Assembly: GCA_021513695.1 (NCBI GenBank)
Contig: CP084166.1
Span: 1,568,001-1,632,000 of the forward strand
Source of the DNA: Candidatus Heimdallarchaeum aukensis
Lineage (GTDB): Archaea; Asgardarchaeota; Heimdallarchaeia; Heimdallarchaeales; Heimdallarchaeaceae
DNA: 64,000 nt
Direction: 5' to 3'
In this document: positions 17,578 through 44,200 of the stretch, piece by piece
How positions within the stretch are numbered: the first letter of the stretch is position 1
Layout of the letters: each line of letters begins with the position of its first letter
Translations under genes and position numbers: made by a program
Notes under the pieces: generated by a model
Databases searched by the model: none
Told to the model about the DNA's origin: nothing
The model's input: the letters and a program-made list of their open reading frames with translations, nothing else

Positions 17578-17904
17578 TTGTTCCTCTCTCACAATGTAGA
17601 TATGACCAAGCAAAATAAATCAAAATTTGATCGCATTACTTGGATTGTCACAGAGTTGATTATTGGCTTTGCTGCCGCAGGTTATGGAGTTTATGGTTTA
17701 TTTAAAGGTTTACCAGAACAAAAGATTGTCCACATAATTATTGCTTCTATTGGTGGGGTTCTATTATTACTTGCTTTTAGTCAGATTCTTATATTAAGAG
17801 GTAAAAAGAAAAGAACTAAAGAAATCAAGCATTGCCCCAAATGTGGAGCTGAAGTCCAAAAAGGAGATGAACACTGCAGAAAATGTGGAGAAAAATTAAA
17901 ATAA
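17578..17904 (+). CDS. Small membrane protein with C-terminal zinc ribbon
   Basis: Two TM helices, then CPKCGAEVQKGDEHCRKCGEKL (CxxC-N9-CxxC). The likely true start is the ATG at 17602 (MTKQNKS...). Confidence 0.5.
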   Translation: MFLSHNVDMTKQNKSKFDRITWIVTELIIGFAAAGYGVYGLFKGLPEQKIVHIIIASIGGVLLLLAFSQILILRGKKKRTKEIKHCPKCGAEVQKGDEHCRKCGEKLK

Positions 17905-18328: not shown

Positions 18329-18634
18329 TTAGAAGATTAATAGAATAGCTACAAGTAGACCATAAATTGCTACTGCTTCAATAAGCACGATGAACAAGAA
18401 GATTTTACCAAAAATCTCTGGTTTTTCAACTAATGCGCCTATACCAGCCGAACCAGCTGAACCCATTCCGAGTGCACTACCGATTCCTGCTAGACCTATT
18501 GCTAGAGCAGCGCCTATAGGTCTCATATCTCCTTCTTCACCTAGAGGAATTTCTGCAGCGAATGTACCTTTTGCGGTTATAATGATAAGCGCAACAATTG
18601 CTAGTAGTCCAATAATCAGATCATTTTTTTTCAT
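18329..18634 (-). CDS. atpK: A/V-type ATPase proteolipid subunit K (c subunit)
   Basis: Gly-rich helix GAALAIGLAGIGSALGMGSAGSAGIG and a second helix with the conserved carboxylate (FIVLIEAVAIYGLL). The track ORF extends to 18730, but the Met at 18634 (MKKNDLIIG...) is the plausible start. Confidence 0.8.
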   Translation of the reverse strand: MKKNDLIIGLLAIVALIIITAKGTFAAEIPLGEEGDMRPIGAALAIGLAGIGSALGMGSAGSAGIGALVEKPEIFGKIFLFIVLIEAVAIYGLLVAILLIF

Positions 18635-18834
18635 AATACGTCCCTTTTTCACGTGTTTAAAATTACAAATCATCGTTTCTTTATTAGTTTTTTGTATTGG
18701 ATACTTTTTAATATTGAATACTTTTTTCAATAAAAAAGTTTTAAGAATAACATATTTTATATTTCATGTATAAGTAAGAAAGCAAACCTATAATAAATGG
18801 GAAAACTTTATGATTATTAAGAAAAGATTCTATC

Positions 18835-19452
18835 GTGAGTAAAATGTTTGGAAACTTTATGAGATGGTTATTAGGAACTCAAAAATCAAGTAGAGACCAT
18901 ATAGTAAACCTTAAACTAACTATTCGCAGACTAGAAAGAGCTCAAAGGAAACTGGAGAGAGATGAATCAAGAATACAACTAAAAATGCGAACAGCTATTC
19001 AGCGTGGTGATTTAGAAGGTGCCCGTCTTTATGCTACAGATATTGTTCGTTCTCGTAAGTGGGTTTTAGGTTACCAGCGTTTAGTTTCTCGTATTAATGG
19101 TCTTATTTTTAAACTAGAACGAGCTGATTCTGCTGCTAACTTGGCAGCTGAAATGCATTCTATTGCAGGAGCTCTTCGACAAGCTAACGCTCAATTAAAT
19201 GTTCCTGATTTAGATCATGTTATTCAAGACATGGAACGTAGTATTGATGGAATTGAGGATTCAACTGAAACAATTGAAGATGGAATTGATGATCTTCTTA
19301 TTGCTGATACCGACCCAGCTGAAGTCGATAGGTTAATTGACCAAACAGCTACAGAGATGGGTGTTAGTGTAGGAGGAGAACTCCCTTCAGTAAGCGCTGT
19401 TGCAACAGACGATCTCGAGGAAGAGATTCAAAAATTAAGGAAAAAAGAGTAA
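18835..19452 (+). CDS. ESCRT-III, Vps2/24/46 (CHMP1-3)-like Snf7-family protein
   Basis: By-eye alignment to CHMP2: ARLYATDIVRSRKWV vs VRIMAKDLVRTRRYV, and MGVSVGGELPSVS vs LGLSLTDELSNLPS. The C-terminal MIM-like DLEEEIQKLRKKE matches DLEERLKNLRRD. Confidence 0.85.
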   Translation: MSKMFGNFMRWLLGTQKSSRDHIVNLKLTIRRLERAQRKLERDESRIQLKMRTAIQRGDLEGARLYATDIVRSRKWVLGYQRLVSRINGLIFKLERADSAANLAAEMHSIAGALRQANAQLNVPDLDHVIQDMERSIDGIEDSTETIEDGIDDLLIADTDPAEVDRLIDQTATEMGVSVGGELPSVSAVATDDLEEEIQKLRKKE

Positions 19453-19467: not shown

Positions 19468-20127
19468 ATGGGTATGAAAAACTGGTTATTTGGAACCAAA
19501 CGCAAGGATGATGCTGAAGCTTTAGCTACACTCAAAGCTCAGATCAATCGATATGAGCACGAGTCCCGCAATTTAGAACGTCAAGCTGATGAACAAAAAT
19601 CTTTAGCTGCTAAGATGTTAAAGTCGGGTAATAAAGCTGGAGCTAAACAAGCTCTTAAGCGTCGAGCTATTTATATGAAACGTTTAAATCAGGTTCAAAA
19701 TATGCTAATGAACCTTCAGAGTCAGATTGATAGTATTCAAACTGCAACCTCTACTGTTGAAACAGTAAAGGCAATGGAGTTAGGTACGAAAGTTGTCAAG
19801 ACGAAGATGCAAGAAGTTGATGTAGAGAAAACTGAACGTGTAATGGATGAAGTTATGAGTCAACGTGATGAAATTGAAATGATGACAGAAGCTTTATCTG
19901 ATACTGCACTAAGTGAGAGCATTTTAGATTACGAAGATGATGTCGCAATTGATGATCAACTTGCTCAATTAGAAGCCGAGATGAATCTTGGTAAAACAGA
20001 AGAATTACCAGATCTTTCAGATCTTCCTTCAACTCCATCAGAAAAACCGACTGAAAAAGAAGAAGATACTTCTGACCTTGAAGCCGAATTAGCTTCTCTT
20101 AAGAAGAAGTTAAGTGATGACAAATAA
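19468..20127 (+). CDS. ESCRT-III, Vps20/32/60 (Snf7/CHMP4)-like protein
   Basis: AKQALKRRAIYMKRLNQVQNMLMNLQSQIDSIQTA aligns by eye with CHMP4 ALQALKRKKRYEKQLAQIDGTLSTIEFQREALENA. The C-terminus is acidic with a terminal amphipathic helix (DLEAELASLKKKL). Confidence 0.85.
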   Translation: MGMKNWLFGTKRKDDAEALATLKAQINRYEHESRNLERQADEQKSLAAKMLKSGNKAGAKQALKRRAIYMKRLNQVQNMLMNLQSQIDSIQTATSTVETVKAMELGTKVVKTKMQEVDVEKTERVMDEVMSQRDEIEMMTEALSDTALSESILDYEDDVAIDDQLAQLEAEMNLGKTEELPDLSDLPSTPSEKPTEKEEDTSDLEAELASLKKKLSDDK

Positions 20128-20254: not shown

Positions 20255-21400
20255 TTGAGCGCGCAAGGACTGATTGAACACGCACGTAAATTTGCAAAAA
20301 AAGCTTATGAACTTGATAAGGCAAAACAATACAATGAGGCAATACCACTTTATCTCGACGCTGCAGAAGCTCTAATGAAAGCAATAAAATTTGAAAGAAA
20401 TCCACAAGTGGGAAAGACATTAAAGAAAAAAGCAGAGATGTACATTGAACGAGCAAAAGATCTAAAAGAAATTATTGAGAAAAAAGCTGAAAAGGGGGCA
20501 GAAACAGGGTCAGACGAAGAATCTGATAAATTAGAAGGAGCAATTAGCGATATCATAGTTACAGAAAAGCCATCAGTTACTTTGGATGATATTGCAGGAC
20601 TAGAAGAAGCAAAACGGAATCTTCGAGAAGCAATAGTGTTACCTCTTGTAAGACCAGACTTATTTAGTGGTGCAAGAAGACCATGGAAAGGGATTTTACT
20701 TTTTGGCCCCCCAGGATGTGGAAAAACTCTTTTAGCAAAAGCAACAGCTGCAGAAGTAGAAGCTACGTTTTTTAATGTTAGTGCGTCCGCGGTTATATCC
20801 AAATGGTTAGGAGAATCTGAAAAATTAGTTAATACATTATTTAAAATTGCTCGTGAAAGGCAACCAAGTATAATTTTCATAGATGAAGTAGATGCTCTTA
20901 CCGGAGCACGTGGTGGCGAGCATGATGCTATGCGCAGAGTTAAAACTGAATTATTAACTTCTATGGATGGTTTATCTAGCTCTGCTCAAGATCGTCTTGT
21001 AGTTATTGGGGCTACTAACCTTCCTGAGTCTATTGATGGAGCTTTTCGCCGTCGTTTTGAGCGTCGTATTTACATTAAGCTTCCAGATTTTGAAGCGCGT
21101 AAAGCTATCTTTCAACTAAATGTCAAAGGAGTGGACTTAGCTCCCGATGTTGATTTTGAATCTTTAGCAGAGATTACAGAAGGTTATTCTGGAGCAGATA
21201 TTGCTATGGTTTGTCGCGATGCTATTATGACTCCTATTCGTGAACTTGATTTATCAGGAGACATTCATGACCCCAATATTAAAGCCAGACCAGTTACACA
21301 AAAAGATTTTCTTGAGTCTATTCAGTCAGTTAATCCTTCTGTAAGTGCAGAAGAAATCGAGAAATATGAGAAATGGAATGAAGAATTTGGTTCAGCGTAA
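20255..21400 (+). CDS. vps4: Vps4-like AAA+ ATPase with N-terminal MIT domain
   Basis: MIT-like helices AKKAYELDKAKQYNEAIPLYLDAAEALMKAIKFERNP. Walker A GPPGCGKT and Walker B IIFIDEVD. The C-terminal helix EEIEKYEKWNEEFG matches the Vps4 pattern. TTG start preceded by GAGAGGT. Confidence 0.95.
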   Translation: MSAQGLIEHARKFAKKAYELDKAKQYNEAIPLYLDAAEALMKAIKFERNPQVGKTLKKKAEMYIERAKDLKEIIEKKAEKGAETGSDEESDKLEGAISDIIVTEKPSVTLDDIAGLEEAKRNLREAIVLPLVRPDLFSGARRPWKGILLFGPPGCGKTLLAKATAAEVEATFFNVSASAVISKWLGESEKLVNTLFKIARERQPSIIFIDEVDALTGARGGEHDAMRRVKTELLTSMDGLSSSAQDRLVVIGATNLPESIDGAFRRRFERRIYIKLPDFEARKAIFQLNVKGVDLAPDVDFESLAEITEGYSGADIAMVCRDAIMTPIRELDLSGDIHDPNIKARPVTQKDFLESIQSVNPSVSAEEIEKYEKWNEEFGSA

Positions 21401-21707: not shown

Positions 21708-23161
21708 CTACTGGGGCTGCAACCAATGGCTGAGCCCTTGGCAAACAGTGAAATGAGTGAGACTAAATTTACGACCAGTGAGTAGATCAGTAATAGTTGT
21801 TGCACGGGGGCGGAAAAGAGAACTAAGGAGCAGACGAGCGATATTCATTGCTCCTGTTAGATCAGAGTGGAAGGTGTAATTGCAAGAGGGACAATAAACT
21901 AACCCTCTAACGGGGCGGGTAACTTTTTTTCCGCAACGGGCACAGTGAGATGATGTTCCTCTTTCCTCTATCGTCAGAATTCGGTGAGAGGGAAAACCTC
22001 TAAGTATTAGTGCACGACGGATAAAAGAAAGAACAAGAGCATAGTTCCACTGGTGAAGTTTTCTTCGTGACTTGCGATTAGTTACTCCCTTATTTTTTTC
22101 TCGTCGAATGTATTTAGGATAACCTATAACAACGAAAAGATTATAGATCCGAGCATAAACCTCTATTGTCCACACGATAGCACTTACAAATTGATTGATA
22201 TACGCTCGTCTGACGTTTCTATACCTCCGACGGAGACGTTTGAGAAAACGGTAAACTTGGTGTTTTTTACCCGATTGGTCGTTTAAAGCTGCTTTCCTCT
22301 GAAGACGGGAAAGTTTGAGTTTATATCGATGATTAACTTTATTCCACTGTTTGGTATACTAGAACTTTATTTCTTTACTTGTTACCTTCTTTTTCGGGGT
22401 CAGTAGCACTTCTACCGCAGGAATGTTTATCCCTAGATCTATTCCCAGCACAGCTGGGGGAAGAAAAGAAGAGTCAGAAGAAAGATTATCTCCCTGAAGG
22501 AAAGAAGAAGGAAGAACTTTTGAATGAAAATATATCCACCATTCACGTGTAGAACGTTTGTATCTTATTTCTAAACTTTTTACTCTTTCTTTAATTCTTT
22601 TTGATGAAACTCGCTCATCTCTAAAGGTAACCACAATCGCTGATGAAAACGTGTTTTTCTTTTCCACCTATCTAACGAGTCTCGTATTCCTACCCACCAA
22701 CGAGAAAGAGTGTTATTCTTATCTTTTGGTAGATGGACGAGGATGAACCTTTTTTTATTAATTAATTGTCTTCTTGCTCTCTTTCTTGGAGGACGAGTAT
22801 TGTTAGGTCTATATCCTTGCTCATATAGTTGCACAGCTATATCTCTACATTCTTGAAACTCATCGTGAGAACAATAGGGAAACATTTTCTTCATATCGTG
22901 AGGAACAGTCGTTCTTCTTTCTTCCTCTTTTTTTACTCTCGAGGTCGTTAATGTCAATTCGTCTAATTTTCCTTTATGTACTTTTATTTTCCCTTCTTTT
23001 GCTTTAATACCTATTTTTTTTCTGTTATGGTGTATAATTCTCACATACTTTTCTATTATTCTAGTATCTCTCCCCGTTATTCTCCTTAACTTTTCTTTTT
23101 TTCTCGTCGTCAATACTTCATTCTTCACTCTCACCTTTAACGTTTTGACGACGTCCTCCAT
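21708..23161 (-). pseudogene. tnpB: tnpB pseudogene (frameshift plus premature stop)
   Basis: Three track ORFs (22580-23161, 22359-22667, 21708-22175) together reproduce the 484-aa copy-A protein. There is an indel near 22585-22595 relative to copy A. TGG became TAG at 22359-22361 (KFWYTKQ in A, KF*YTKQ here). Confidence 0.85.
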
Positions 23162-23310: not shown

Positions 23311-23331
23311 TTATGTAAAATAGTAAATCAT
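23311..23331. repeat. Right terminal inverted repeat of element B
   Basis: See 21413-21433. The terminal ..TCAT abuts a G, so the first ATG of the next ORF (23330) is built from the element end. Confidence 0.7.
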
Positions 23332-24130
23332 GGCTACAATGGAAAAACAAAAAGATAATGAATTTGAGCAAATTGATCTTGAAAAATTGAAAGAAGAAAA
23401 GAAAATATCAGAAGATAAGCTTAAGCTTATTGAAGCCAGTATTAAGGGATTAAAAGTTTCAGAAGAAGAACTGAAGTCCACGAAACCTATTGTTAGAGAA
23501 GAAGCAAGATTAGAACTAACAGAAGACACAAAGACGAAGCTAATTAAAGAATTTGAGCAAAGTTTACCTGATTGGGTTAACAAGCCTTGGATGTATGTCA
23601 CCCCAAAAAAGGCAAATCAAGTTGAGTCTTGGTTAGACAGTTGGTCATCAGTCATGCTTGATTATACAAAGAAATTTGTTATTCATATTGTTAATGTCAA
23701 TTCTCTTAGAGAAACTTATCCTTTTTGTAATAAGAAAATAAGAAAAGAACTTACCATCGATCAAATTCGTGATATCATCGATTTTCTTGAAACAAAGGGT
23801 TTTGCTCTTTGGATAAATGATAGGACAAAATTCTTTGAGAAACTTTTTGCAAAGATACTTGGAAAACCTTTAACAAAAAAGATCCGTGCAAAGATAGAAT
23901 GGAAAACAAAAGAAGAATTTGCTGAAGATTTACTTAAATGGATGATTGAAACCGGTAGAGTAGTTGAAGTTCACTCTTTATATGATTTAACAAAATATGA
24001 ACAACCCTGGTCTTCTTTACCTTCAGATGATTTAATCCATGTATGCAATTTACTCGTAGAAAAAGGTTCTGCTAGATGGTTAAATAGAGAAAGAACTATA
24101 ATTTCCTTTGAAGCAACAAAGGTATTCTAA
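23330..24130 (+). CDS. Vps25-like ESCRT-II subunit (two winged-helix domains) with a charged N-terminal extension
   Basis: The C-terminal 170 aa align by eye with human EAP20/Vps25: VESWLDSWSSVMLDYTKKF vs QLAAWCSLVLSFCRLH, DIIDFLETKGFALWIND vs VLEELRKKGNLEWLDK, and WKTKEEFAEDLLKWMIETGRVVEVHSLYDL vs WRRPEEWGKLIYQWVSRSGQNNSVFTLYEL. The native start may be the ATG at 23339. Confidence 0.7.
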   Translation: MATMEKQKDNEFEQIDLEKLKEEKKISEDKLKLIEASIKGLKVSEEELKSTKPIVREEARLELTEDTKTKLIKEFEQSLPDWVNKPWMYVTPKKANQVESWLDSWSSVMLDYTKKFVIHIVNVNSLRETYPFCNKKIRKELTIDQIRDIIDFLETKGFALWINDRTKFFEKLFAKILGKPLTKKIRAKIEWKTKEEFAEDLLKWMIETGRVVEVHSLYDLTKYEQPWSSLPSDDLIHVCNLLVEKGSARWLNRERTIISFEATKVF

Positions 24131-24183: not shown

Positions 24184-24621
24184 ATGTTTAAAAATTATAT
24201 ATTGAATAGACTTTTGAGATTTATGTCTTTAGACGATGAAGAATTACAAAGGATTCGAGAAAAAAAGGCACAACAACTTAGGCAAATTTTAGAACAGAGA
24301 AAATCAAAAATGGAACAACTTAAACAAGAGGAAACAGCGCCAAAAAGCATTACAAAAGAGGACAAGTATCGTTTAATGAATTATTTTCTAACTGATGACG
24401 CTTTTTCTTATTGGAAGAGTCTATATGAAAATCCACAAAAGCATAATACAGCAGAAACAATTTTCATTAATTTGCTCTATCTGATTAAGATTGGTTTTAT
24501 GGAAGGAAAACTTATCTCTCTTCTAGGAATTAAAAAATTAGAAAGAAAAATAGATAATATTCCTTCTAAAATCACAATAAAGAGAAAAGGAGAAAAAGAA
24601 AGATCCAAAGTTTTGGATTAA
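24184..24621 (+). CDS. PDCD5/TFAR19-like double-stranded-DNA-binding family protein
   Basis: DDEELQRIREKKAQQLRQ..., then a helical core (LMNYFLTDDAFSYWKSLYENPQKHNTAETIFINLLYLIKIGFMEGKLIS...KITIKRKG). These parallel PDCD5 (ELEALRRQRLAELQ ... [41 protein letters not shown] ... VKFNRR). The start may be Met14. Confidence 0.6.
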   Translation: MFKNYILNRLLRFMSLDDEELQRIREKKAQQLRQILEQRKSKMEQLKQEETAPKSITKEDKYRLMNYFLTDDAFSYWKSLYENPQKHNTAETIFINLLYLIKIGFMEGKLISLLGIKKLERKIDNIPSKITIKRKGEKERSKVLD

Positions 24622-24697: not shown

Positions 24698-24934
24698 ATG
24701 AAGTTGAGTATTGTTACCGCAATAGGAGGAGGTCTTTTAGAATTAGATGTTGATAGCCATCAAACAATTGCACAACTTAAAAGAGAAGTTTCAAGAATTA
24801 AAAAGATACCTGCAAATACAGTTATTTTGGTTCATCATGGTCAACAGTTAGATGATGGTGAAACAATTAAGAGTTGCGGATTACAAGAAGGAGATAAACT
24901 CTATCTAATTGCAAGAACAAAAGGTGGACTTTAG
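24698..24934 (+). CDS. Ubiquitin-like beta-grasp protein ending ...RTKGG-L
   Basis: 78 aa. The pattern matches ubiquitin (TIAQLKREVSRIKKIPANTVILVHHGQQLDDGETIKSCGLQEGDKLYLIARTKGGL vs [55 protein letters not shown]). AGGAG lies upstream of the ATG. Confidence 0.85.
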   Translation: MKLSIVTAIGGGLLELDVDSHQTIAQLKREVSRIKKIPANTVILVHHGQQLDDGETIKSCGLQEGDKLYLIARTKGGL

Positions 24935-25009
24935 CTTTTCTATTTCAAAATTTTTTTAGAAGAATAGAAACTGTTTTATTACTTCTAAAAGATATTTTTG
25001 TGAAAGTGG

Positions 25010-26014
25010 ATGTCTAAAGAAGGTAGATATGCGAGACAGACTCTCATACCTGGTTGGAATCAGAAGAAACTCAACAAATCAACAGTTATTATTGTTGGTG
25101 TGGGAGCAATTGGATCATATGTATCAACGATTTTAGCTTCTTCAGGAGTAAAAAATCTCATTCTAATTGATTTTGATACTATTGAAATCTCTAATCTTAA
25201 TCGTCAATTACTATTTCGGGATGGAGATATTGGAAAATCCAAATCTGAAATTGCAGCTATGCGATTATCGGAACTAAATCCAGATATTAACATTACCTTT
25301 CATCATAAGAAGATGCAAGATTTACCTATTTCTATTTACAAAAAAGCAGATGTCATTGTGGCTTGTCTTGATACCTTCATTGGAAGAAGATGGATAAATT
25401 CACTTGCTGTAAAAATAAACAAACCTTTAATTTTAGGTGGAATGTTTGCTTTTCTAGGAGATGTTCAAGTTGTTTTACCAAAAAAAACTGCTTGCTTTGA
25501 TTGTCAACCTTTAGTTGCAGAAAGAGAACTTGCGCAAGCTTGTACTCCATTCGGAGAAGAAAGGAAGAAAAACAGAGAAGAAAAAGAGGATGAAGCGAAA
25601 TTACCATCTGTAGCCACATTGTCTGCGATTATCGGAGGAATTATGGCACAAGAAGCCTTAAAACTTCTTTTAGACATAGGTGAACCAATCAAGAATTATC
25701 TTTTCTATGATGGATTACATAATGCAACAACAATAATTGAACTTGCAAGAAGAAAAAAAGATTGTCCAACTTGTGGAGAACTATATGAGTTGGAACAAGT
25801 CGAATTTGTGGTAAATAAAGATAATACCGTCAAAGAACTATTAATCCAATTAGGTTTACAATTCGGACTTGAGAGCCCAGACATTATGATTAAAGGGAGG
25901 ATACTCCCTCACGATTCAAAAATCCAAGAACTAGGTATAAAAAATAACATGAAGGTTTTTGTAATGGACAAAAATTTAGCTTCACCAATCAAGTTAAAGT
26001 TAAAGATTGAGTGA
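25010..26014 (+). CDS. E1-like ubiquitin-activating enzyme (ThiF/MoeB fold) with C-terminal beta-grasp/UFD-like domain
   Basis: Rossmann motif VGVGAIGSYV, then DFDTIEISNLNRQLLF. Zinc-type cysteine pairs CFDC and CPTC. A charged crossover-loop insert (EERKKNREEKEDEAK) follows ACTPF. The last ~70 aa (VKELLIQLGLQFGL...MKVFVMDK) look like a beta-grasp domain. Confidence 0.85.
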   Translation: MSKEGRYARQTLIPGWNQKKLNKSTVIIVGVGAIGSYVSTILASSGVKNLILIDFDTIEISNLNRQLLFRDGDIGKSKSEIAAMRLSELNPDINITFHHKKMQDLPISIYKKADVIVACLDTFIGRRWINSLAVKINKPLILGGMFAFLGDVQVVLPKKTACFDCQPLVAERELAQACTPFGEERKKNREEKEDEAKLPSVATLSAIIGGIMAQEALKLLLDIGEPIKNYLFYDGLHNATTIIELARRKKDCPTCGELYELEQVEFVVNKDNTVKELLIQLGLQFGLESPDIMIKGRILPHDSKIQELGIKNNMKVFVMDKNLASPIKLKLKIE

Positions 26015-26025
26015 AAAAAGAAAAT

Positions 26026-26751
26026 TTAGGTGTGTGACAGTCCAGGGAAATAATATTTAGTTCCTTCAGCATAGGAACTATCTACTCTTGCTATACCATT
26101 TTCTTCAAAAAATGATAAGCAACGATTAATTCTTTCCTCTGCCCACCCTGTTCTAAGTAATAGATCTTCTTTTGTTACAAATCCTGTTCTTGAAGCAATG
26201 TTTAATATTACATCATGGTCGGGACTGAATTCAACAGGAGCAAATTCTACTAGTTTCACTCCAGATTCTAAAACTTTGAAAGGTGGAATTAATTTTGAAT
26301 TTATGAGTTTCTCTAATGAACGATACAAGTCATCAATTGTAACTAGTTTTCCAGGTCTAGTTTTATTTAATTGGGTAAACAATTCACCTACAGACATTAT
26401 ACCTCCATTTTCTTCTATAAGTTTTTGACCCAAATCCATGATTTCGTTTGCTAAAACATCATAGAAACCTTTTCCTGTTAATCTATCTTTTAGAGTTGGA
26501 GCTTCTTTCCATTCATATCTCCCTATTTCTGTAGGTAAGCCTAGTTCTTCTCGCAGGCCAGCAAGTTTTTCATAATATTCTTTATTTTCAACTATTTTAT
26601 CACCATATTTCTTTTCAAATTTCTTTAGTTGCTTTTTAACTTGTTTAATATTTTCCAACATTTGTTCTAATTCTTTTATCATTAATTCGGCTTCTTTAAC
26701 TTGGAAAGCTGACTTCACTTTTAATTTCTTTTCAATATCTCTTAAGCCCAA
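26026..26751 (-). CDS. EAP30-domain ESCRT-II subunit (Vps22/Vps36-like)
   Basis: By-eye alignment to SNF8/EAP30: FYDVLANEIMDLGQKLIEENGGIMSVGELFTQL vs [33 protein letters not shown], and DHDVILNIASRTGFVTKEDL...W..ER....L..FEENGIARVD vs DHTVVLQLAEKNGYVTVSEI...W..ER....L..LLKEGLAWLD. An N-terminal coiled coil is present. Confidence 0.8.
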   Translation of the reverse strand: MGLRDIEKKLKVKSAFQVKEAELMIKELEQMLENIKQVKKQLKKFEKKYGDKIVENKEYYEKLAGLREELGLPTEIGRYEWKEAPTLKDRLTGKGFYDVLANEIMDLGQKLIEENGGIMSVGELFTQLNKTRPGKLVTIDDLYRSLEKLINSKLIPPFKVLESGVKLVEFAPVEFSPDHDVILNIASRTGFVTKEDLLLRTGWAEERINRCLSFFEENGIARVDSSYAEGTKYYFPGLSHT

Positions 26752-26823: not shown

Positions 26824-27132
26824 TTAAAAAAGGAGAGGAAGTCTTCTAATCCACTCTTTAATTGAATTCATAAGCTTTTTAGATTCATTTGGAGGAAGAA
26901 AAGCTGCTAGTTTGTCTTTATAGTTTTTGTATAGTTTTTGATAAACGCTGTCCATTTCATCAACAATTGAATCATTTACCAAATTGATTTTTTTAACAAG
27001 ATGTTTTATCTCTTCCAACTCTTCTAAGATGTATGAACAGTCAATTTTTATTTCTAAGAGATCCATCAACTCGAATAAACTATCTTTTGCTTTATTATAG
27101 GTATTTTCTAAAGATTTTCTCCTAGAAATCAT
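26824..27132 (-). CDS. Small all-helical protein (102 aa) between the ESCRT-I-like and ESCRT-II genes
   Basis: Heptad-like, charged helical sequence. It has its own SD-like GAGGAG 6 nt upstream of the ATG. No family recognised. Confidence 0.5.
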   Translation of the reverse strand: MISRRKSLENTYNKAKDSLFELMDLLEIKIDCSYILEELEEIKHLVKKINLVNDSIVDEMDSVYQKLYKNYKDKLAAFLPPNESKKLMNSIKEWIRRLPLLF

Positions 27133-27168: not shown

Positions 27169-28638
27169 CTACATATCTTTTAAAATTCGTCTAAATTCGT
27201 TTAACCATCTTGATGCTTGGAATTCTAGTTTTTCACAATCGTCTTCATTTATTATTTCACTTGGTTTATAATTTGAAAGAATGTCTTTCCAGTTTTTCAT
27301 ATCGCTGAGCATCCAATGATCTTGCGGAATAGATGGAAACGAGTGCAAAACATGAATTAGCTCTTCTACGTCAGCCAACAGCAAATCAGCTCGTGCGACT
27401 GATTTAAGCCTTGTTAGATCAATTAATTCAATTGCAGCTGAAACAAAATCAGCTGTTTTTACAGGCATTTTCTTTAAGGATTCAAATGGTATCATTTCAA
27501 CATCTTTAGTTCCAGTTCCTTCAGCCATTTGTAGCAATCTCATTCCTTTGTCAAATCTATTTAGCAGATTTTCTTGCTCTATAAACGAATCGAGATCAAA
27601 TCCACCTAATTGTTCCAGTTTCATTCTTGTTTTGAAAACTGTTCTTATTAGTGATCTTAACTGCTTTTTATATGCAACTTGCTCAATCTCACCATTTTCA
27701 TACCCTCTCGCTAAATTATCTAATGTCACTATTGCTGCATATAAATCAGCTTCAAAATCTAATCTTTTATCTAAATCACTAGGCATTACTTGTCCTCCAA
27801 CATTTTCTAAATAAGCTAATTTTTTATTTGTCTTATAACTTTCCACTGAATATTTTCTATAAAGTTTCAAGTAATCAACACTTGAAAGATCTCCATCATC
27901 AAATTTCTCATTTAATAGCTCTAATAAGTCATTAGATGCTCTTGAACTTGCTTTTAAATCATCGGTTACAGAAATTGTAAGTTCTTTTAATGAATGTGAA
28001 GGCTCAGCTTTCTTGATTAGAGCAGCTCTTTTTTCCTCAATTTGTTTATTTAGTTCGTTTATCTGCTGCTGATACGCTTCTATCTCTGCTTCAATAGTAC
28101 TTTTTTCTATCGATGTTTGACTCCGTTCATTAAAGGATGGTACACTTTGCTTACGTACAGTGTGACGTGAAACTGTTCTTGGTTTCATCGGTTGAACTAC
28201 AGATCTAGACACACTCCTAGCTGTAGACATATGCTTTGTTCTTAATGGTCTTGCAGGAACATTAGCAAATAATCGCCGAATATCATTTATAACTTGATAA
28301 ATATGATAGCGTGGTTTCCATTGAGCGAGTATTTGCAAACTAAGAAAGTCATTGTCGTCAACATTAGGATGATTTACTTTAGGAGTAATTTCAACTTGAG
28401 GAGGAATTCTTGGGAACTCTGGAGAGATATATATTGTAGCATAAACAGTTATCTTCGTTCCTTGAATTATCCCTACAGGGCCTTTCCACTTTCTTAAATT
28501 GCCTCCTACTGGCTCAAATCCTTCAACATTATTATAAATTAATTGCATCTCATTAGCAAGAATCTGATCTAGAGAAATTTGTCTCACCTTTACTCTTCTA
28601 TTATTGTTATAAACTTCAAAGTTTAAAAAATATTGCAT
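27169..28638 (-). CDS. ESCRT-I-like fusion: UEV/E2-variant domain + coiled-coil stalk + Vps28-like domains
   Basis: Residues ~45-125 have a UBC fold (KWKGPV..GT...V...I....FP..PP.V.....V.HPNV) with Ser100 where E2s carry the catalytic Cys (DFLSLQIL vs GSICLDIL). A coiled coil spans ~170-205. The C-terminal ~200 aa align by eye to Vps28 (DLYAAIVTLDNLARGYENGEI...Y vs ELYSLIITLDHLEKAYLKD.I...Y, plus a C-terminal helical bundle). Confidence 0.75.
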   Translation of the reverse strand: MQYFLNFEVYNNNRRVKVRQISLDQILANEMQLIYNNVEGFEPVGGNLRKWKGPVGIIQGTKITVYATIYISPEFPRIPPQVEITPKVNHPNVDDNDFLSLQILAQWKPRYHIYQVINDIRRLFANVPARPLRTKHMSTARSVSRSVVQPMKPRTVSRHTVRKQSVPSFNERSQTSIEKSTIEAEIEAYQQQINELNKQIEEKRAALIKKAEPSHSLKELTISVTDDLKASSRASNDLLELLNEKFDDGDLSSVDYLKLYRKYSVESYKTNKKLAYLENVGGQVMPSDLDKRLDFEADLYAAIVTLDNLARGYENGEIEQVAYKKQLRSLIRTVFKTRMKLEQLGGFDLDSFIEQENLLNRFDKGMRLLQMAEGTGTKDVEMIPFESLKKMPVKTADFVSAAIELIDLTRLKSVARADLLLADVEELIHVLHSFPSIPQDHWMLSDMKNWKDILSNYKPSEIINEDDCEKLEFQASRWLNEFRRILKDM

Positions 28639-28729: not shown

Positions 28730-29272
28730 TTACTTTCTATTTTTGACTAAAAGTGTAGCTAGTTTCACAAATGCTTCTTGAACATGTTCTCCTGTAAGTG
28801 CACTTGTTTTTATGAAATCCAAACTATTGATTTTGTTTTGTAATGATTTACATTCATCATCTGATACAGCAATTTTATCTTCTAAATCATTTTTATTTCC
28901 AACTAAGATGGTAAGGGTGTTCTTTCCACAGTTTTTAACAAGTTCAGAGTTCCATTTCTCTAGATCAGTTAGTGTTGAATTCCTGGTTAAATCGAAAACC
29001 ATCAGTGCTGCTTTTGCTCCTTTAAAGAAAGTATGTCTTATAAACCTAAATCTATCTTGTCCTGCTAGATCCCAAATTGAAAGAGCTACAACTGTATTGT
29101 CCTCTAATGTAACAAATTTCTCACTCGGTTCCATACCTATTGTCATCAGATAACTTTGTTCAAAACGATTATGAACAAAACGTTGTACAAGAGATGTCTT
29201 TCCTACAGCGGCGGCACCTAATAGAAGTATTTTGAAATTGAAATCAGGACGAATTGAACGCATTATTCTCAA
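28730..29272 (-). CDS. Rab/Ras-like small GTPase
   Basis: G1 GAAAVGKTS, G3 WDLAGQD, G4 GNKND and G5 TSAL. By eye it aligns end to end with Rab-type GTPases. There is no C-terminal Cys prenylation motif. The likely start is the ATG at 29263 (MRSIRPDF...). Confidence 0.9.
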   Translation of the reverse strand: MRIMRSIRPDFNFKILLLGAAAVGKTSLVQRFVHNRFEQSYLMTIGMEPSEKFVTLEDNTVVALSIWDLAGQDRFRFIRHTFFKGAKAALMVFDLTRNSTLTDLEKWNSELVKNCGKNTLTILVGNKNDLEDKIAVSDDECKSLQNKINSLDFIKTSALTGEHVQEAFVKLATLLVKNRK

Positions 29273-33173: not shown

Positions 33174-34628
33174 CTACTGGGGCTGCAACCAATGGCTGAG
33201 CCCTCGGCAAACAGTGAAATGAGTGAGACTGAATTTCTGACCAGTGAGGTAATCAGTAATGGTGTTACATCGAGGACGGAAAAGATATCCAAGGAACTTA
33301 CGAGCGATATTCATTCCCCTTGTTAGATCAGAATGAAAAGTGTAGTTACAGGAAGAACAATGAACTAACCCTCTAACGGGACGGGAAACTTTCCTCCCGC
33401 AACGAGCACAGTGAGAAGATGTCCCTCTTTCCTCTATTGTTAATATTCGGTGAGATTCAAAGCCTCGAAGTATAAGTGCCCGACGGAGAAGAGAGAGAAC
33501 AAGAGAAAAATTCCACTGATGAAGTTTTCTGCGAAACTTACGATTACTTTTTTCTTTTTCTTTTCCTTCTCGAACATGTTTGGGGTAACCTACAACAACG
33601 AAAAGGTCATACACTTGTGCATAACTCTCTATCGTCTGCACAACATCGCTTATAAATTGGTGAATATACGCGCGTTTAACGTTTCTATACCTCCGACGAA
33701 GAAGACCAAGAAAACGGTAAACTTGGTGCTTTTTACCTAACTGGTCGTTTAAAGCTGCTTTCCTCTGAAGACGGGAAAGTTTGAGTTTATATCTATGATT
33801 GATTCTATTCCACTGTTTAGTATACCAGAATTTTATCTCTTTTTTTGTTAACTTCTTTTTAGGAGTCAGTAACACTCCTGCAGCAGGAATGTTTATCCCT
33901 AGATCTATTCCCAGCACAGCTGGGGGAAGAGAAGAAGAATTATCTCCTTGACTTGTGAGATAAAAGGAAGAAGGAGGAAGAACTTTTAATTGGAAATACA
34001 CCCACCATTCACGTGTAGAACGTTTGTATCTTAGTTCTAGACTTTTCACCCTCCCTTTCTTTAACTCTTTCTGGTGAAAATCGCTCATCTCTAAAGGTAA
34101 CCACAACTTCTGATGATAAGGTGTCTTTCTCTTCCAGGTATCTAACGAGTCTCTTATTCCTACCCACCAACGAGTAAGTGTATTATTCTTCTCTTTTGGT
34201 AGATGGACAAGAATGAACCTTTTTCCATTAATTAATTGCCTTCTTGCTCTCTTTATTGGAGGACGAGTAGGACGGGGTCTATACCCTTGTTCATATAATT
34301 GTACAGCTATATCTCTACACTCTTGGAATTCATTGTGAGAACAATAGGGAAACATTTTCTTCAAGTCGTGAGGAACAGTCTTTCTCCTCTCTTCTTCTTT
34401 TACTCTTGAAGTAGTCAGTGTCAACTCGTCTAATTTTCCTCTATGTACTCTTATTTTCCCTTTTTTTGTTCTTATACTTATTTTTCTTCTGTTGTGGTGT
34501 ATAATTCTCACATATTTTTCTATTATTCTCGTGTCTCTCCCCGTTATTCTCCTTAATCTTTCCTTTTTTCTCGTCGTCAATACCTCATTCTTTATTCTCA
34601 CTTTTAATGTTTTGACGACGTCCTCCAT
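33174..34628 (-). CDS. tnpB: TnpB-like RNA-guided endonuclease family protein (OrfB, RuvC + zinc ribbon)
   Basis: 484 aa. RuvC-I is LGIDLGINIP. The zinc ribbon is CARCGRKVSRPVRGLVHCSSCNYTFHSD. RuvC-III is HSDLTRGMNIA. The N-terminal KTLKVRIKN... is typical of TnpB. Confidence 0.9.
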   Translation of the reverse strand: MEDVVKTLKVRIKNEVLTTRKKERLRRITGRDTRIIEKYVRIIHHNRRKISIRTKKGKIRVHRGKLDELTLTTSRVKEEERRKTVPHDLKKMFPYCSHNEFQECRDIAVQLYEQGYRPRPTRPPIKRARRQLINGKRFILVHLPKEKNNTLTRWWVGIRDSLDTWKRKTPYHQKLWLPLEMSDFHQKELKKGRVKSLELRYKRSTREWWVYFQLKVLPPSSFYLTSQGDNSSSLPPAVLGIDLGINIPAAGVLLTPKKKLTKKEIKFWYTKQWNRINHRYKLKLSRLQRKAALNDQLGKKHQVYRFLGLLRRRYRNVKRAYIHQFISDVVQTIESYAQVYDLFVVVGYPKHVREGKEKEKSNRKFRRKLHQWNFSLVLSLLRRALILRGFESHRILTIEERGTSSHCARCGRKVSRPVRGLVHCSSCNYTFHSDLTRGMNIARKFLGYLFRPRCNTITDYLTGQKFSLTHFTVCRGLSHWLQPQ

Positions 34629-39866: not shown

Positions 39867-40247
39867 ATGTCAATAAGTTTACCACCAGAAAAGAAAAAAG
39901 AATTAATTAAAATATTAAAACAAATTTCACAAGGTTGTGAATTGGAAGCTTTAGCAGTTGTAACAGATGAGGGAATTAAAGTAGCTTTTTTTGCCGAGAA
40001 AAGTGCAGACCCTGATTTACTCAGCGCTGTAAGCTCGGCTGTTCTTTCCACCGGAGAGATGGTTACAAAACAGCTTTCTCACGGTTTTTTGGAACAAGTT
40101 TTAATCCGCGGTGCTAAAGGATTTACTATCTTATCTAATTTAGATCACTATCTTTTAATTGGAGCTTCTAAGGATTTACACAGCGTTGGTTTAGCTATAC
40201 AAGTAATAAGAAGGCATAGCCCCACAATTGCAGAATTGTTAAACTAA
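39867..40247 (+). CDS. Roadblock/LC7/MglB-family protein
   Basis: 126 aa. ALAVVTDEGIKVAFF...AVLSTGEMVTKQLSHGFLEQVLIRGAKGFTILSNLDHYLLIGASKD follows the Roadblock/LC7 alpha-beta-alpha pattern. Confidence 0.8.
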   Translation: MSISLPPEKKKELIKILKQISQGCELEALAVVTDEGIKVAFFAEKSADPDLLSAVSSAVLSTGEMVTKQLSHGFLEQVLIRGAKGFTILSNLDHYLLIGASKDLHSVGLAIQVIRRHSPTIAELLN

Positions 40248-40289: not shown

Positions 40290-41291
40290 TTAATAAAAGA
40301 GGAAACTCTTCTCTATTTCCTCTTGGCTAAAGCCAGCATTAATTCCAACAATTATTCTAATAAGATCAGAGATTTCTGCGTATTTCATTTCAAAAAAGGC
40401 AATCAATATTTTAAGATCAGTTGAAGATTTTTGACGAAATATTTTTTTCCATTTTTTGATTTGGAAACGCTCAACAGCAAATTCTATATCATGTAGAGGA
40501 ATATCATCTTTTCCCATGTAGTCAGCGAAGATTCTTTTGTATATTCCAAAATTGTACATGCTTAGGACTTCAGGAATGGAATTTGATTCTAATGCTTTTG
40601 CAATAAATGTTGTTGGTTTAATATAACGATAGGGAGCAATCCCAAGATTAATACATCTACACACCCAAATTATGTTCTTTAAGTTAACGTAGACATCAAA
40701 CTCACGAGAAATTACAGGGAGAATATAATATTCAAATTGATCTATTGCTGCGTCAACTGGTACAAAACGTCCTGTTTTCTGAAATTCAGAATAGCCTTGT
40801 TCTAATAATTGTTTGAAAGTCTGAATTTTTTCTGACTTAATGATATCAGCAATTGATGAGGAGGAAGAAAGAACTTTTTCATAATATTCATAACTGTATC
40901 TTCCAACTGGAGAAATTCTTTCTATTATTTCTTCATGAGGTTGCTTCATAAACAGTCCACGAAGAATATATCGGATATTCTCTGCATGAAATCGTTGGGA
41001 ATGAAGATCAATTATCTTTTTTGCTCTACTTGATCCCTGTTTATAAAAAGTGCTCACAGTTTGAGCAAAATGGTTCTTTAATTGTTTTGCAACTTCTGGC
41101 ATCTCTGTAACAAAATTAATATCTTGAACAATTGGACCATATTGCGTTTGCCGAAAAGCAGCTTGTAGTTCTTTAAGATTAGAAGAGGATAGAAGAAAAT
41201 TTATCTGACTTCGACTAAGTACTTTGCCTATTATTCCATGAGCTCTTCCATATAAATATCCATCTCCTGAGAACATTTCATTCACCAGCAA
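40290..41291 (-). CDS. atpC: A/V-type ATPase subunit C (eukaryotic V0-d / AC39 family)
   Basis: 333 aa helical protein. YLYGRAHGIIGKVLSRSQINFLL at the N-terminus, AENIRYILRG in the middle, and EISDLIRIIVGINAGFSQEEI near the C-terminus fit the triple-repeat AC39 pattern. It overlaps atpI by 14 nt. Confidence 0.75.
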   Translation of the reverse strand: MLVNEMFSGDGYLYGRAHGIIGKVLSRSQINFLLSSSNLKELQAAFRQTQYGPIVQDINFVTEMPEVAKQLKNHFAQTVSTFYKQGSSRAKKIIDLHSQRFHAENIRYILRGLFMKQPHEEIIERISPVGRYSYEYYEKVLSSSSSIADIIKSEKIQTFKQLLEQGYSEFQKTGRFVPVDAAIDQFEYYILPVISREFDVYVNLKNIIWVCRCINLGIAPYRYIKPTTFIAKALESNSIPEVLSMYNFGIYKRIFADYMGKDDIPLHDIEFAVERFQIKKWKKIFRQKSSTDLKILIAFFEMKYAEISDLIRIIVGINAGFSQEEIEKSFLFY

Positions 41292-44200
41292 TAGTTGTGT
41301 ATTGAATAAATTTGGTTTTCTCTAGTAATGGAGTATATTGGACACCTTCCCCTTTGTAGAACTTGGAGAAAAATTCTACCCAATGCAACCTCAGTGTCTG
41401 TAAGAATGAGAACATTCCTTCAATAGGTACAATCACAACAAGTCCCCAAACAATGCCAACAATCCAATAAATCCAAGAGGTAGCTAAAGCAGAGACGTTA
41501 TGGGTATCAACACCAGCTAAAATATATGGAAGACCACTCAAAATTGCATGGACTAGTAACATAGCTAAGATACGGCTAAAGGATAGTGTGTTAGAGAATA
41601 GAGCAATAAGATGATCTATAGCTTCCATAATCCCCTCTGTTCCTTCATGGAGATATTCGAATAGGAAAACTAGAGGAATTGAAACTAAGGCAATAATTGT
41701 AAATATTGTAGAATAGGGTTTTGGAATACTAGGAAGTGCATTTCCACCGATAAGTCGTGAAGTAGCACCAGCACCCATTAAATTATACAATACTGCAAAA
41801 AGTCCTACGTAAAAAATGGAAAGTATAATTGGAGAAATCCATGAAGCTACACCGTGACCGTATTTTTTGTTTTGTATAAATCTTAACCAGATCCCAAGTT
41901 GTATAATTACAAAACCAATAGAAATGGAAAACAATAAGAACAATGGTACTTCTTTTGTAGGCTCAATCAAAGGCAACCATTCAATATGCAAAACGTTTTC
42001 ATAAATATCAGGTAGAAATACTTCATCACCTAGAAGTGCTCCAAATAGGAAACCAAAGATAATTGAAGAAAAACCAGAAAGAGCAAGTAACTCAGAACCT
42101 TTATACAGAAATCCAGACATTGATTCATCAGGTTCAATATTCTTTTTGTTTTTCTTATAAGTTAGAAACAATCCAATCAAGAAGAGAAGTATTCCATGTC
42201 CCACATCAGCGAACATTATACCAAATATCAAGGGAAAAGTAAATTGTATAATTTTGAAGGGGTCTACTTCATGAGTTGAAGGGATACCCATTCCATCAAC
42301 TATTCCTCGAAAAACTTTAGTAACCTTATTCCCATGTTTTGTCATTGAAGGATTCGTTAATGGTACTTTTTGTTTTTCAGACATAGTTATTGGAAAATCC
42401 AATTTTTCGGTTTCTTTCTTTAAGTCTTCAACCCTATCTTTAGGAACCCAACCCCAAATTGTTGTAGTGGTTTCATCAGTTTTACATTTTTCTTCTGTTT
42501 CCAACCTTTTAATTTCTGTTTCTATTAACTCTTCTAGTGCGAAGATTTTGTCTTCTACTTTCTCCCTAATTTCATCCAATTCATGTTCTTTATGTTCTAT
42601 TTCAGTTTGAAGATTCGTGAGCTGACTTTCAATAGATTCTGAAGATATCATGCTATAGTCAATAGATAACAGCTCAAAGGAATATTCTTCTAGAACTTGT
42701 TGTATAGACTTCTTATAATCTATTAGAGACAATATGTAGACAAAGACTGTGTCACTTTTTTCTGGTTGCTCAACCTCAATGAAAATTAATTGCCCATCAG
42801 AAACTTCATTTAGGAAAAACTTTACAGCCTTAACATTCTTTTTTGGGATATTCCCCAAAAAGGTACAAGTTTCAAAATCTGGATCATCCAAGTATGGTTT
42901 AACATCAGAGCTTAAATAGGAATAAATAGGGATATATGCTTCTAATTCTGTTTTCTTCGCTTTTAATTCTTTAAGTTCGGAACTAAGATTTTCTATTTTT
43001 TCTCCATAATCTGCAATAAATTGCTCAACAAAAGATATAGCTTCATCATAGTTATCTTTTACAGCAATCTTAGAATCAGATATTGCTGGAGGAATAGATA
43101 ATCCAAGGGCTTGTTTGTATCTGCTAATTTTGGAAGATAGTAAAGTAAAATTCTGTCTTTTTTGTTTTATGTCGTTTAAAATATCTTCTGACTGTCTTCC
43201 TATCTTTTCTTGATGAAGGATACCAGTGTTATGAATAAAGGAGATTAACTTACGTGTGTGCTCCTTTGGGACTTCCATTTTAACAAACTCTACATCCTTC
43301 GGAAATAAAGCTCCTCCCTTACTGTCACCTAAATGATGATAAGGAGGAATTTCTTTTTCAATTGTTTTTTCTTCTTTCAAAGTCAAAGAACCACGATCCT
43401 TGGAAATTTTTTTAGATTTTTTATATTTCAGAGGAACATCCCTCAATTGAGTGAGTTTAACAGGAAAAGGAAGCTCTTTGAGTTCCTTTTCGAGATTAAG
43501 ATAATCATTAGGTTTAATCCAACCCCAAAGGGTGAAATTAGTTTGAGTTGTTCGACCCTGTTCTAGAATATCAAATAACTCAAGCATGAGATTAATAAAA
43601 GTGAGAAAATGCAAAAGAGTTTCACGATGTTCATCACGCAATTCTGAAATTTGAGATAAAATTTCATCGTGCTTTTCGTGCAGAAAATCATGTACATTAG
43701 CTACTGTAAGCTTGCTAGTTTCTTCATCACTGAACATATCGGCAAAAACAGACAGTTCAAAATCTATTGAAGAAAAATAGAAATTTTCTAGAATAGTCAA
43801 AACTTCATCTTGATATTCCTGGGGGGTGAGAATAAAAACCAAACGAAAATCAGGGTTAGATGATTCAATACTCCAGAAGTAATAAAGACCTTTAGTTATC
43901 TCATCAATATAAAAGGAGATAACTTTCTTATACGAATGATGGATTTCTCCAACGATAGAAAAGGTGGAAGGCCCAGAAGAAAGTAAATCTAAAGGGATAT
44001 CACCAGTCTCAAACTTATGCCGAAAATAATGAAGTTTGTCGGCAATTAGATGCTTCTTTGTTAAAGAATGATTTTCTTCAAAAAGAGAGATAAGAGAAGT
44101 TTCATGTGTATCTAAGAAAGATTTTAGTTCGGAAAGAAATCTAGAAGCATCAAAAACATCAGAGTAGTTTTTTTCTGAATATGAATAAACATCAGAAAGA

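Follow-up and report, generated by a model that had tools for sequence, protein, structure and literature searches.

How can a ubiquitin gene and the gene of its activating enzyme serve a ubiquitylation pathway when the only protein with a ubiquitin-conjugating (UBC) fold encoded nearby has no catalytic cysteine? This question is raised by a 64,000-nucleotide stretch of the Candidatus Heimdallarchaeum aukensis chromosome (referred to as the window in the following; all positions are counted within it, unless another locus is named). [quoted passage not shown] An original prediction, made from the DNA sequence of the window, left two options for this pair: a cascade completed by distal genes, or one that works unconventionally. 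The first option held, since a ubiquitin-conjugating enzyme (E2) with an intact catalytic cysteine, UJG39738.1, is encoded on the same chromosome, and nothing that we found requires the second. We consider it probable that a eukaryote-like ubiquitylation cascade, in which the two proteins serve as modifier and activating enzyme, leads into the surrounding ESCRT machinery. The features at the center of this reading are the following.

24698-24934 (+): pro-ubiquitin, 78 amino acids (PF00240; GenBank name "ubiquitin family protein")
25010-26014 (+): E1-like ubiquitin-activating enzyme, 334 amino acids, with one ThiF adenylation domain and a C-terminal ubiquitin-fold domain (UFD)
25031-25771 (+): adenylation (Rossmann/ThiF) domain of the E1, residues 8-254, from Pfam and the homologue alignment
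25541-25543 (+): Cys178 of the E1, putative catalytic thioester cysteine, from its position in the crossover loop
25793-26011 (+): UFD of the E1, residues ~262-334, a predicted E2-docking module without a terminal Gly-Gly, from structure models and fold search

The Modifier Is Encoded as a Pro-Ubiquitin with a Tail of One Residue

The product of 24698-24934 reaches 51.2 bits on the Pfam ubiquitin model PF00240 (cut-off, 25.4; E=1.1e-13), and the translated open reading frame (ORF) terminates in IARTKGGL, in agreement with the RTKGGL end from which the original prediction had set out. One additional residue, Leu78 (codon 24929-24931), follows Gly76-Gly77. An alignment with homologues and human ubiquitin places Val45 of the protein at the position of human Ile44. 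Among close homologues, G76 and G77 are kept in at least 90% of the sequences and are followed by zero to two variable residues; the ends found are GG, GGL, GGF, GGY, GGS or GGYC, and the residue after Gly-Gly is not conserved. Because short, unconserved tails of 1-8 residues after Gly-Gly are also present in 19 of 26 distinct orthologues from the fetched loci of other Asgard and Caldarchaeales genomes (the other seven end in plain GG), we read the window protein, on the strength of its sequence, as an ordinary pro-ubiquitin.

It is reasonable to expect that the residue behind Gly-Gly needs to be removed. The pro-ubiquitin of Caldiarchaeum subterraneum, with a tail of nine residues against the one in H. 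aukensis, is refractory to its own E1 until it is cut after Gly-Gly by an Rpn11 homologue (PMC5654768).

A Minimal E1 with a Single Adenylation Domain

The ubiquitin and E1 genes are located on the same strand, with the ubiquitin gene upstream and a gap of 75 bp between them, and this pairing recurs in the loci L001-L005 and in those E2 loci that have an E1. Residues 8-254 of the E1 match the ThiF family (PF00899; E=1.3e-64). At E<=1e-10, 551 E1 homologues were found; of the 120 that were listed, nearly all of those with a name are from Asgard archaea. Across 62 aligned homologues, the glycines of the ATP loop (G30-x-G32-A-x-G35), residues N62, R65 and Q66 of the NLNRQ motif (N62-Q66), K78, D121 and the four cysteines of a zinc site (C162/C165/C252/C255) are invariant. 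The same holds for Cys178, which lies within a QACTPxGE motif in the crossover loop (residues ~167-197). This 31-residue loop stands where UBA3 has residues 196-280, its Cys domain of ~85 residues, and its position suggests that Cys178 may be the catalytic thioester cysteine.

By sequence, no solved protein is closer to the E1 than UBA3 (E=4e-38); ThiF and MoeB rank behind it. An AlphaFold2 model of the full-length protein, built from the 62 homologues, has a mean predicted local distance difference test score (pLDDT) of 85.6, with a poorly ordered crossover loop (pLDDT 46-55 in three 10-residue blocks over residues 171-200). This model superposes best on UBA3 chains, with a template-modeling score (TMq) of 0.79-0.81; the match spans ~420-436 alignment columns and therefore takes in the C-terminal domain of UBA3, whereas ThiF and MoeB structures give a TMq of only ~0.63. 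On the NCBIfam models for MoeB, ThiF and UbaA the E1 reaches E-values of ~1e-36 to 1e-42, all of them scores far under the family cut-offs (MoeB, 145 bits against 449 and 266; ThiF, 143 against 275; UbaA, 123.9 against 450), and it contains no rhodanese domain.

The protein is not a MoeB, ThiF or UbaA enzyme. Nor is it a canonical eukaryotic E1, although it has the UFD fold in common with these enzymes, because it has neither a second adenylation domain nor a separate Cys domain. With its adenylation domain, zinc site, loop cysteine, ubiquitin-like (UBL) domain at the C-terminus and adjacent ubiquitin gene, it belongs to the archaeal family of eukaryote-like E1-like proteins. A homodimer is the probable active form of the E1, since it has a single adenylation domain and since no second ThiF-like gene (an APPBP1/SAE1-like partner) was found in the window.

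The C-Terminus of the E1 Resembles the Ubiquitin-Fold Domains That Bind E2 Enzymes

The MoeB, ThiF and UbaA profiles, which comprise ~200-270 positions, cease to match the E1 by ~residue 266 and leave 70-80 residues uncovered. The protein is indeed longer than SAMP/MoeB-type activators, as the original prediction had remarked, and the ubiquitin fold that had been proposed there for its last ~70 residues was recovered by structure prediction: residues 264-333 of the AlphaFold2 model form a beta-grasp domain whose elements are, in order, one strand, one helix, a pair of strands, a short helix and a final pair of strands. When the domain was modeled on its own (79 residues; pLDDT 86.8), the top matches of a Foldseek search of the PDB were UFDs of E1 enzymes, which ranked above free ubiquitins with TM-scores of 0.66-0.77. 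These UFDs are those of UBA3 (3fn1_A, 1y8x_B, 2lq7), SAE2/Uba2 (5fq2_B, 4w5v_B, 3ong_A) and an Arabidopsis E1 (6gum_B), and several of the structures (3fn1, 1y8x, 5fq2, 4w5v, 3ong) were solved bound to E2s.

The domain is found in all 62 aligned homologues, with P326 invariant and a conservation of 90% or more at G286, P290, G296, D320 and L323. None of these proteins terminates in Gly-Gly; their ends are variable tails rich in Lys and Glu. A profile-profile comparison with hhalign relates the domain family to the local ubiquitin family (95.6% probability, E=1.3e-8). Pfam at E<=0.1 gave only weak matches in this part of the E1, namely to Ubiquitin_5 (E=6.8e-4), ubiquitin (E=0.022) and ThiS (E=0.058). 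Collectively, the models support the view that the E1 ends in a UFD, which is predicted to recruit an E2.

The Probable Partner E2 Is Encoded at a Distance

Our Pfam scans covered 57 ORFs of the window, all but one of them at least 90 amino acids long, and included every plausible gene of that size. No match to UQ_con, JAB or RING models was found among these ORFs, apart from the UQ_con match of an ESCRT-I fusion protein (27169-28638). A tblastn search of the window with the H. aukensis E2 and an Asgard RING protein hit the same gene only (28563-28072), so that the earlier statement that no catalytic E2 is encoded nearby stands. In a MAFFT alignment with E2s, the UBC-fold domain of the fusion protein keeps the HPN motif (H90-N92) and has Ser100 in line with the catalytic cysteine, the serine that had been pointed out before; there is no cysteine in the domain. 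Judged by its sequence, this domain is a ubiquitin E2 variant (UEV) and not a catalytic E2.

The original prediction had also proposed a search of the genome for a UBC-fold protein with an intact cysteine, and this search was successful. With E2s of Freyarchaeia and Heimdallarchaeia relatives as queries, we obtained a family of Asgard E2s of 135-165 amino acids. The H. aukensis member, UJG39738.1 (P0256), was reached through the 90%-identity cluster of the E2 P0173; it was not among the best 120 matches of two Asgard E2s, and a genome scan yielded the sister species H. endolithica. UJG39738.1 is a protein of 156 amino acids that is encoded on the same 3,081,793-bp chromosome and annotated in GenBank as "ubiquitin-conjugating enzyme E2". 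It has an N-terminal helix, an intact HPN motif and Cys85 (FHPNFFNRRIC, with the cysteine in RICVGVLG).

The neighbors of the E2 gene are queuosine/archaeosine-type genes and genes for a zinc-ribbon protein and RadA; no ubiquitin-system gene is present in this neighborhood. The accessions of UJG39738.1 and of the UEV-Vps28 protein, UJG39580.1, are 158 numbers apart (165-169 in H. endolithica), a gap that would correspond to a chromosomal distance of ~160 genes. In the relative CSMAG_1225, E2 and E1 are ~186 kb apart on one contig. We inspected 27 loci, mostly labeled Heimdallarchaeota, that encode an E2 with at least 72% identity to UJG39738.1, and none of them contains an E1 or ubiquitin gene within flanks of ~10 kb. 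Therefore, the seemingly missing E2 reflects a conserved trait of gene order, common to the closest relatives of H. aukensis, and does not point to another chemistry. H. aukensis and every relative that was examined have kept an intact E2.

Other lineages keep these genes together. The same E1 family is found within contiguous RING-ubiquitin-E2-E1 operons in Freyarchaeia, Baldrarchaeia and Atabeyarchaeia and in ubiquitin-E2-E1 clusters in Caldarchaeales, where a RING gene was detected at one locus. Hodarchaeales-type loci hold E2, RING, ubiquitin and E1 genes within ~6 kb, and in one Heimdallarchaeia relative the E2 gene is two genes away from that of the E1. The linkage to E2 and RING genes that is lacking in the window characterizes the gene order of this operon type rather than the enzyme itself. 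The modest addition that our analysis makes concerns this gene order: in the closest relatives, the E2 consistently lies ~150-190 kb away from the cluster of ubiquitin, E1 and ESCRT genes, while other Asgard lineages have the genes together.

One might nevertheless suppose that ubiquitin and E1 function without any E2, in conjugation and/or sulfur transfer like the SAMP/UbaA or Urm1/Uba4 systems, and that the beta-grasp domain of the E1 is otherwise employed. The window, with no gene for an E2, a ubiquitin ligase (E3) or a JAMM protease, is compatible with this view. So are the build of the E1, in which, as in MoeB, UbaA and UBA5, one ThiF domain is not accompanied by a Cys domain of its own, and the E-values on MoeB, ThiF and UbaA models given above. 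With UbaA of the Haloferax SAMP system and with MoeB/ThiF, the E1 shares a single ThiF domain with a zinc site and a cysteine in the crossover loop. However, its scores stay under all curated cut-offs of these families, whose profiles leave the UFD uncovered; UBA3 rather than MoeB or ThiF is its nearest solved relative in both sequence and structure; and a rhodanese domain is absent. To our knowledge, UbaA, MoeB and ThiF enzymes have no UFD, and no E2 is involved in their reactions. Their partners are ThiS/MoaD-like proteins with a free Gly-Gly end, while the modifier studied here matches the ubiquitin family and not ThiS/MoaD. Moreover, the UFD is conserved in an E1 family that elsewhere resides in RING-ubiquitin-E2-E1 operons, and an intact E2 has been kept throughout. 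We therefore regard an E2-independent system as unlikely.

A Probable Eukaryote-Like Cascade Leading to the ESCRT Machinery

In the cascade that we favor, the single residue after Gly-Gly would be trimmed by a protease encoded outside of the window, probably one of the JAMM/Rpn11 type as in Caldiarchaeum. The ThiF domain of the E1 would then adenylate the exposed carboxylate of Gly77, and ubiquitin would be bound as a thioester to Cys178 of the crossover loop. Subsequently, the UFD would dock the 156-amino-acid E2 UJG39738.1, to whose Cys85 ubiquitin would be passed; we propose this step because of the likeness of the domain to the UFDs of UBA3 and SAE2 and because of the published biochemistry of archaeal E1 and E2 enzymes. 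ATP-dependent activation of ubiquitin and its transfer to an E2 have been shown with the homologous proteins of C. subterraneum and of the Helarchaeial system (PMC5654768; 10.1101/2023.07.25.550441). Ubiquitylated targets would finally be read by the UEV of the fused UEV-Vps23-Vps28 protein and handed on to ESCRT-II, ESCRT-III and Vps4.

Several points weigh against this cascade. For H. aukensis, it is proposed from genes and structure models. The catalytic role of Cys178 is deduced from the position of this residue, which falls into a low-confidence loop of the model, and the one-residue tail is only presumed to block this particular E1. The UFD was assigned from a predicted structure, a weak Ubiquitin_5 match (E=6.8e-4) and a profile comparison, and the Pfam E1-UFD models gave no match to the E1 at E<=0.1; the docking of the E2 by this domain would follow by analogy. 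Furthermore, neither the maturation protease nor an E3 was located: both are absent from the window, and the metagenome scan for the protease did not reach H. aukensis.

That scan, performed with a JAMM alignment, returned 80 loci, apparently for the most part short Rpn11/CSN5-like fragments and other archaeal contigs, and none from the source metagenome of H. aukensis. A regular expression for the JAMM motif was negative in all window ORFs of at least 60 amino acids. Applied to ORFs of the same minimal length in the first 88 fetched loci, it was positive only beside the ubiquitin operons of Atabeyarchaeia and Caldarchaeales, and no JAMM gene adjoins the ubiquitin operon in any fetched Heimdall- or Hodarchaeales-type locus. 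Where JAMM/Rpn11-type proteases do adjoin this operon, they are encoded at 7738-8172 (+) of locus L075 and upstream of ubiquitin in loci L079, L080, L084 and L085.

Two proteins of the window were considered as hidden RING-type E3s and dismissed, as neither matches RING models. One is a 108-amino-acid membrane protein (17578-17904) that carries a plain zinc ribbon. The other (53140-54558, +; 472 amino acids) contains multiple CxxC motifs: six pairs are present at its N-terminus, with weak matches to B-box-type zinc fingers (E~3e-4), and the protein also has long coiled coils and a weak Myosin_TH1/PH-like match. It resembles the Asgard-specific, ESCRT-associated family "Znr_CC_PH_SB" (PMC10936438).

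The ESCRT Cluster Around the Ubiquitin-E1 Pair

The genes that surround the pair, among them those of the ESCRT machinery that would act downstream of it, are listed below.

18835-19452 and 19468-20127 (+): Snf7/ESCRT-III proteins (Pfam)
20255-21400 (+): Vps4 (Pfam)
23330-24130 (+): Vps25-like ESCRT-II subunit (PF05871, E=6.6e-16)
24223-24621 (+): gene for a protein of 132 amino acids directly upstream of ubiquitin, in a position conserved in relatives
26026-26751 (-): EAP30, a Vps22/36-like ESCRT-II subunit (PF04157, E=1.4e-22)
26824-27132 (-): all-helical protein of 102 amino acids between EAP30 and UEV-Vps28, conserved in relatives
27169-28638 (-): UEV-Vps23 core-Vps28 fusion protein (ESCRT-I; UQ_con, E=7e-12; Vps23_core, E=2e-5; VPS28, E=1.4e-11)
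28730-29272 (-): Ras-family small GTPase beside the ESCRT-I gene

From left to right, two Snf7 genes, vps4, TnpB-like fragments, the Vps25 gene, the gene for the 132-amino-acid protein, ubiquitin and E1 are followed on the opposite strand by the genes for EAP30, the helical protein, the UEV-Vps23 core-Vps28 fusion and the Ras-like GTPase. This locus is the Asgard ubiquitin-ESCRT cluster known from the literature. By analogy with its published counterpart, the fusion protein is likely to be the reader of the ubiquitin mark. Its GenBank entry (UJG39580.1, "hypothetical protein") has 472 amino acids, against 489 for the longest ORF, the two starts being 17 codons apart; several metagenome gene calls also give 489. 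Some relatives of this protein are annotated as "ubiquitin-conjugating enzyme E2" despite the absence of a catalytic cysteine.

The vicinity of the two genes raises the idea that the UFD of the E1 has been re-targeted to the UEV of ESCRT-I, instead of or besides the distal E2. Such docking would anchor the activation of ubiquitin at the ESCRT-I receptor or would allow E1-proximal ubiquitylation at ESCRT sites; we know of no coupling of an E1 to a UEV described in eukaryotes. The UEV retains the UBC fold that UFDs recognize, the UEV-Vps28 gene of the relative L005 directly follows that of the E1 on the same strand, and the E2 gene has moved ~150-190 kb away in this family. These arguments are indirect. 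In canonical E2s, helix 1 is the main contact of the UFD, and the corresponding residues ~1-45 of the UEV align poorly with it (MAFFT), whereas the distal E2 keeps both helix 1 and the catalytic motif. The adjacency is equally well explained by the binding of ubiquitin to the UEV, an interaction demonstrated by experiment (PMC9192718). We judge this re-targeting to be very unlikely.

Finally, the notion that the beta-grasp domain of the E1 represents a modifier or sulfur carrier (MoaD, ThiS or UBL) that is fused to the enzyme and activated in cis, and not a dock for an E2, can draw on the weak ubiquitin and ThiS matches at residues 256-319 and on the homology of the domain to the local ubiquitin family, but is hardly tenable given that a Gly-Gly end is lacking in all 62 homologues, that the best structural matches are specifically E1 UFDs, above free ubiquitins, and that the whole E1 model superposes on UBA3 (TMq 0.8).

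Relation to Known Ubiquitin Systems

The eukaryote-like cascade that we propose for H. aukensis is closely related to systems that have been described before. Hennell James et al. (2017) reconstituted an E1/E2/RING cascade and annotated the C-terminal UBL of the archaeal E1-like protein, which they modeled on 3GZN (PMC5654768). The C. subterraneum E1-like protein is of the same family as that of the window: in tblastn comparisons, residues 6-333 of the latter, and hence also its C-terminal domain, are 32-34% identical to Caldarchaeales loci. Both combine one adenylation domain with a zinc site and, at the C-terminus, a UBL, and UBA3, on which the C. subterraneum protein was modeled, is also the top match found here. 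In both systems, the ubiquitin precursor carries residues after Gly-Gly. The two differ in that E1, E2 and ubiquitin are contiguous in C. subterraneum, with a RING gene reported in the operon and an Rpn11/JAMM gene adjacent, whereas the H. aukensis ubiquitin and E1 genes are part of an ESCRT cluster.

Hatano et al. (2022) found that the UEV-Vps23-Vps28 protein of the Heimdall archaeon AB_125 binds ubiquitin by its UEV domain, through a patch around Val45, and that two cysteine-bearing E2s are encoded elsewhere in the AB_125 genome (PMC9192718). H. aukensis has a comparable ubiquitin-ESCRT cluster with a UEV fusion devoid of the catalytic cysteine, a ubiquitin with the same Val45 and likewise a distal E2; one of the two AB_125 E2s, recovered as L017, is 76% identical to that of H. 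aukensis. AB_125 is, however, another species, and the gene order of H. aukensis is rearranged, with a broken TnpB-like element between vps4 and the Vps25 gene.

In the Helarchaeial system studied by Lu et al. (2023), E1, E2 and RING proteins ubiquitylate the ESCRT-I protein UEV-Vps23 in vitro, and the pro-ubiquitin has the tail SPKN (10.1101/2023.07.25.550441). An Asgard ubiquitin-ESCRT cluster and a short-tailed pro-ubiquitin are common to both organisms, but the Helarchaeial E1, E2 and RING genes are situated inside the ESCRT operon, while the H. aukensis E2 is distal and no RING gene was found in the window. Among eukaryotic enzymes, human UBA3, the catalytic subunit of the NEDD8 E1, is closest to the E1 in sequence and structure, including the UFD, which in UBA3 docks Ubc12, just as the UFD of SAE2/UBA2 docks Ubc9. 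UBA3 differs from the H. aukensis protein by its heterodimer partner, of which there is no counterpart in the window, and by the inserted Cys domain; the latter protein has 334 amino acids, against ~430-460 in the UBA3 constructs of the PDB matches.

The UFD of the E1, the pro-ubiquitin and the UEV reader have thus already been published for close relatives, and the genes carry corresponding GenBank annotations. Hence, the H. aukensis locus is a confirmation rather than a discovery. On a Heimdallarchaeial chromosome that is closed, it cleanly illustrates what preceded the eukaryotic ubiquitin-ESCRT pathway in archaea: a pro-ubiquitin, a minimal E1 already equipped with the UFD that canonical eukaryotic E1s possess, and a ubiquitin reader built on a UEV.

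Further Genes of the Window

The gene for the 132-amino-acid protein occupies the same position in loci L005 and L087 and in H. endolithica (UJG42226.1), and may encode an uncharacterized accessory of the ubiquitin-ESCRT cluster. The idea that the protein is PDCD5-like was discarded; all that was found was a match to NF003268, "DNA-binding protein", which spans the full length but stays under the cut-off (E=0.0096; 16 bits against 98). The helical protein of 102 amino acids, which has 101 in L005, is called "YtzH-like" in GenBank from a Pfam match under the cut-off; its position suggests a free-standing helical subunit of ESCRT-I/II.

Between vps4 and the Vps25 gene, two ORFs on the minus strand (21708-22175 and 22580-23161) look like the halves of a broken gene of the TnpB/IS605-OrfB type: one has a Cas12f1-like TNB domain, and the other, without a Pfam match, occupies the place expected for the N-terminal part. 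The TNB domain is also found in two longer ORFs, at 33174-34628 (-) and 62247-63545 (-). Since locus L005 holds the same ESCRT and ubiquitin genes in another order and orientation, the cluster has been rearranged, possibly through these elements.

Additional eukaryotic signature proteins encoded in the window are an actin homologue (44868-46004, +; PF00022, E=3e-132) and a Roadblock/LC7 protein (39867-40247, +). The genes for a V/A-type ATPase are split across the window (41278-44406, 40290-41291 and 18329-18730, all on the minus strand). The homologue of its subunit I is unusually long, with 1042 amino acids of which the Pfam V_ATPase_I model covers only a part, and the c-subunit gene adjoins the Snf7 genes, as it does in L005.

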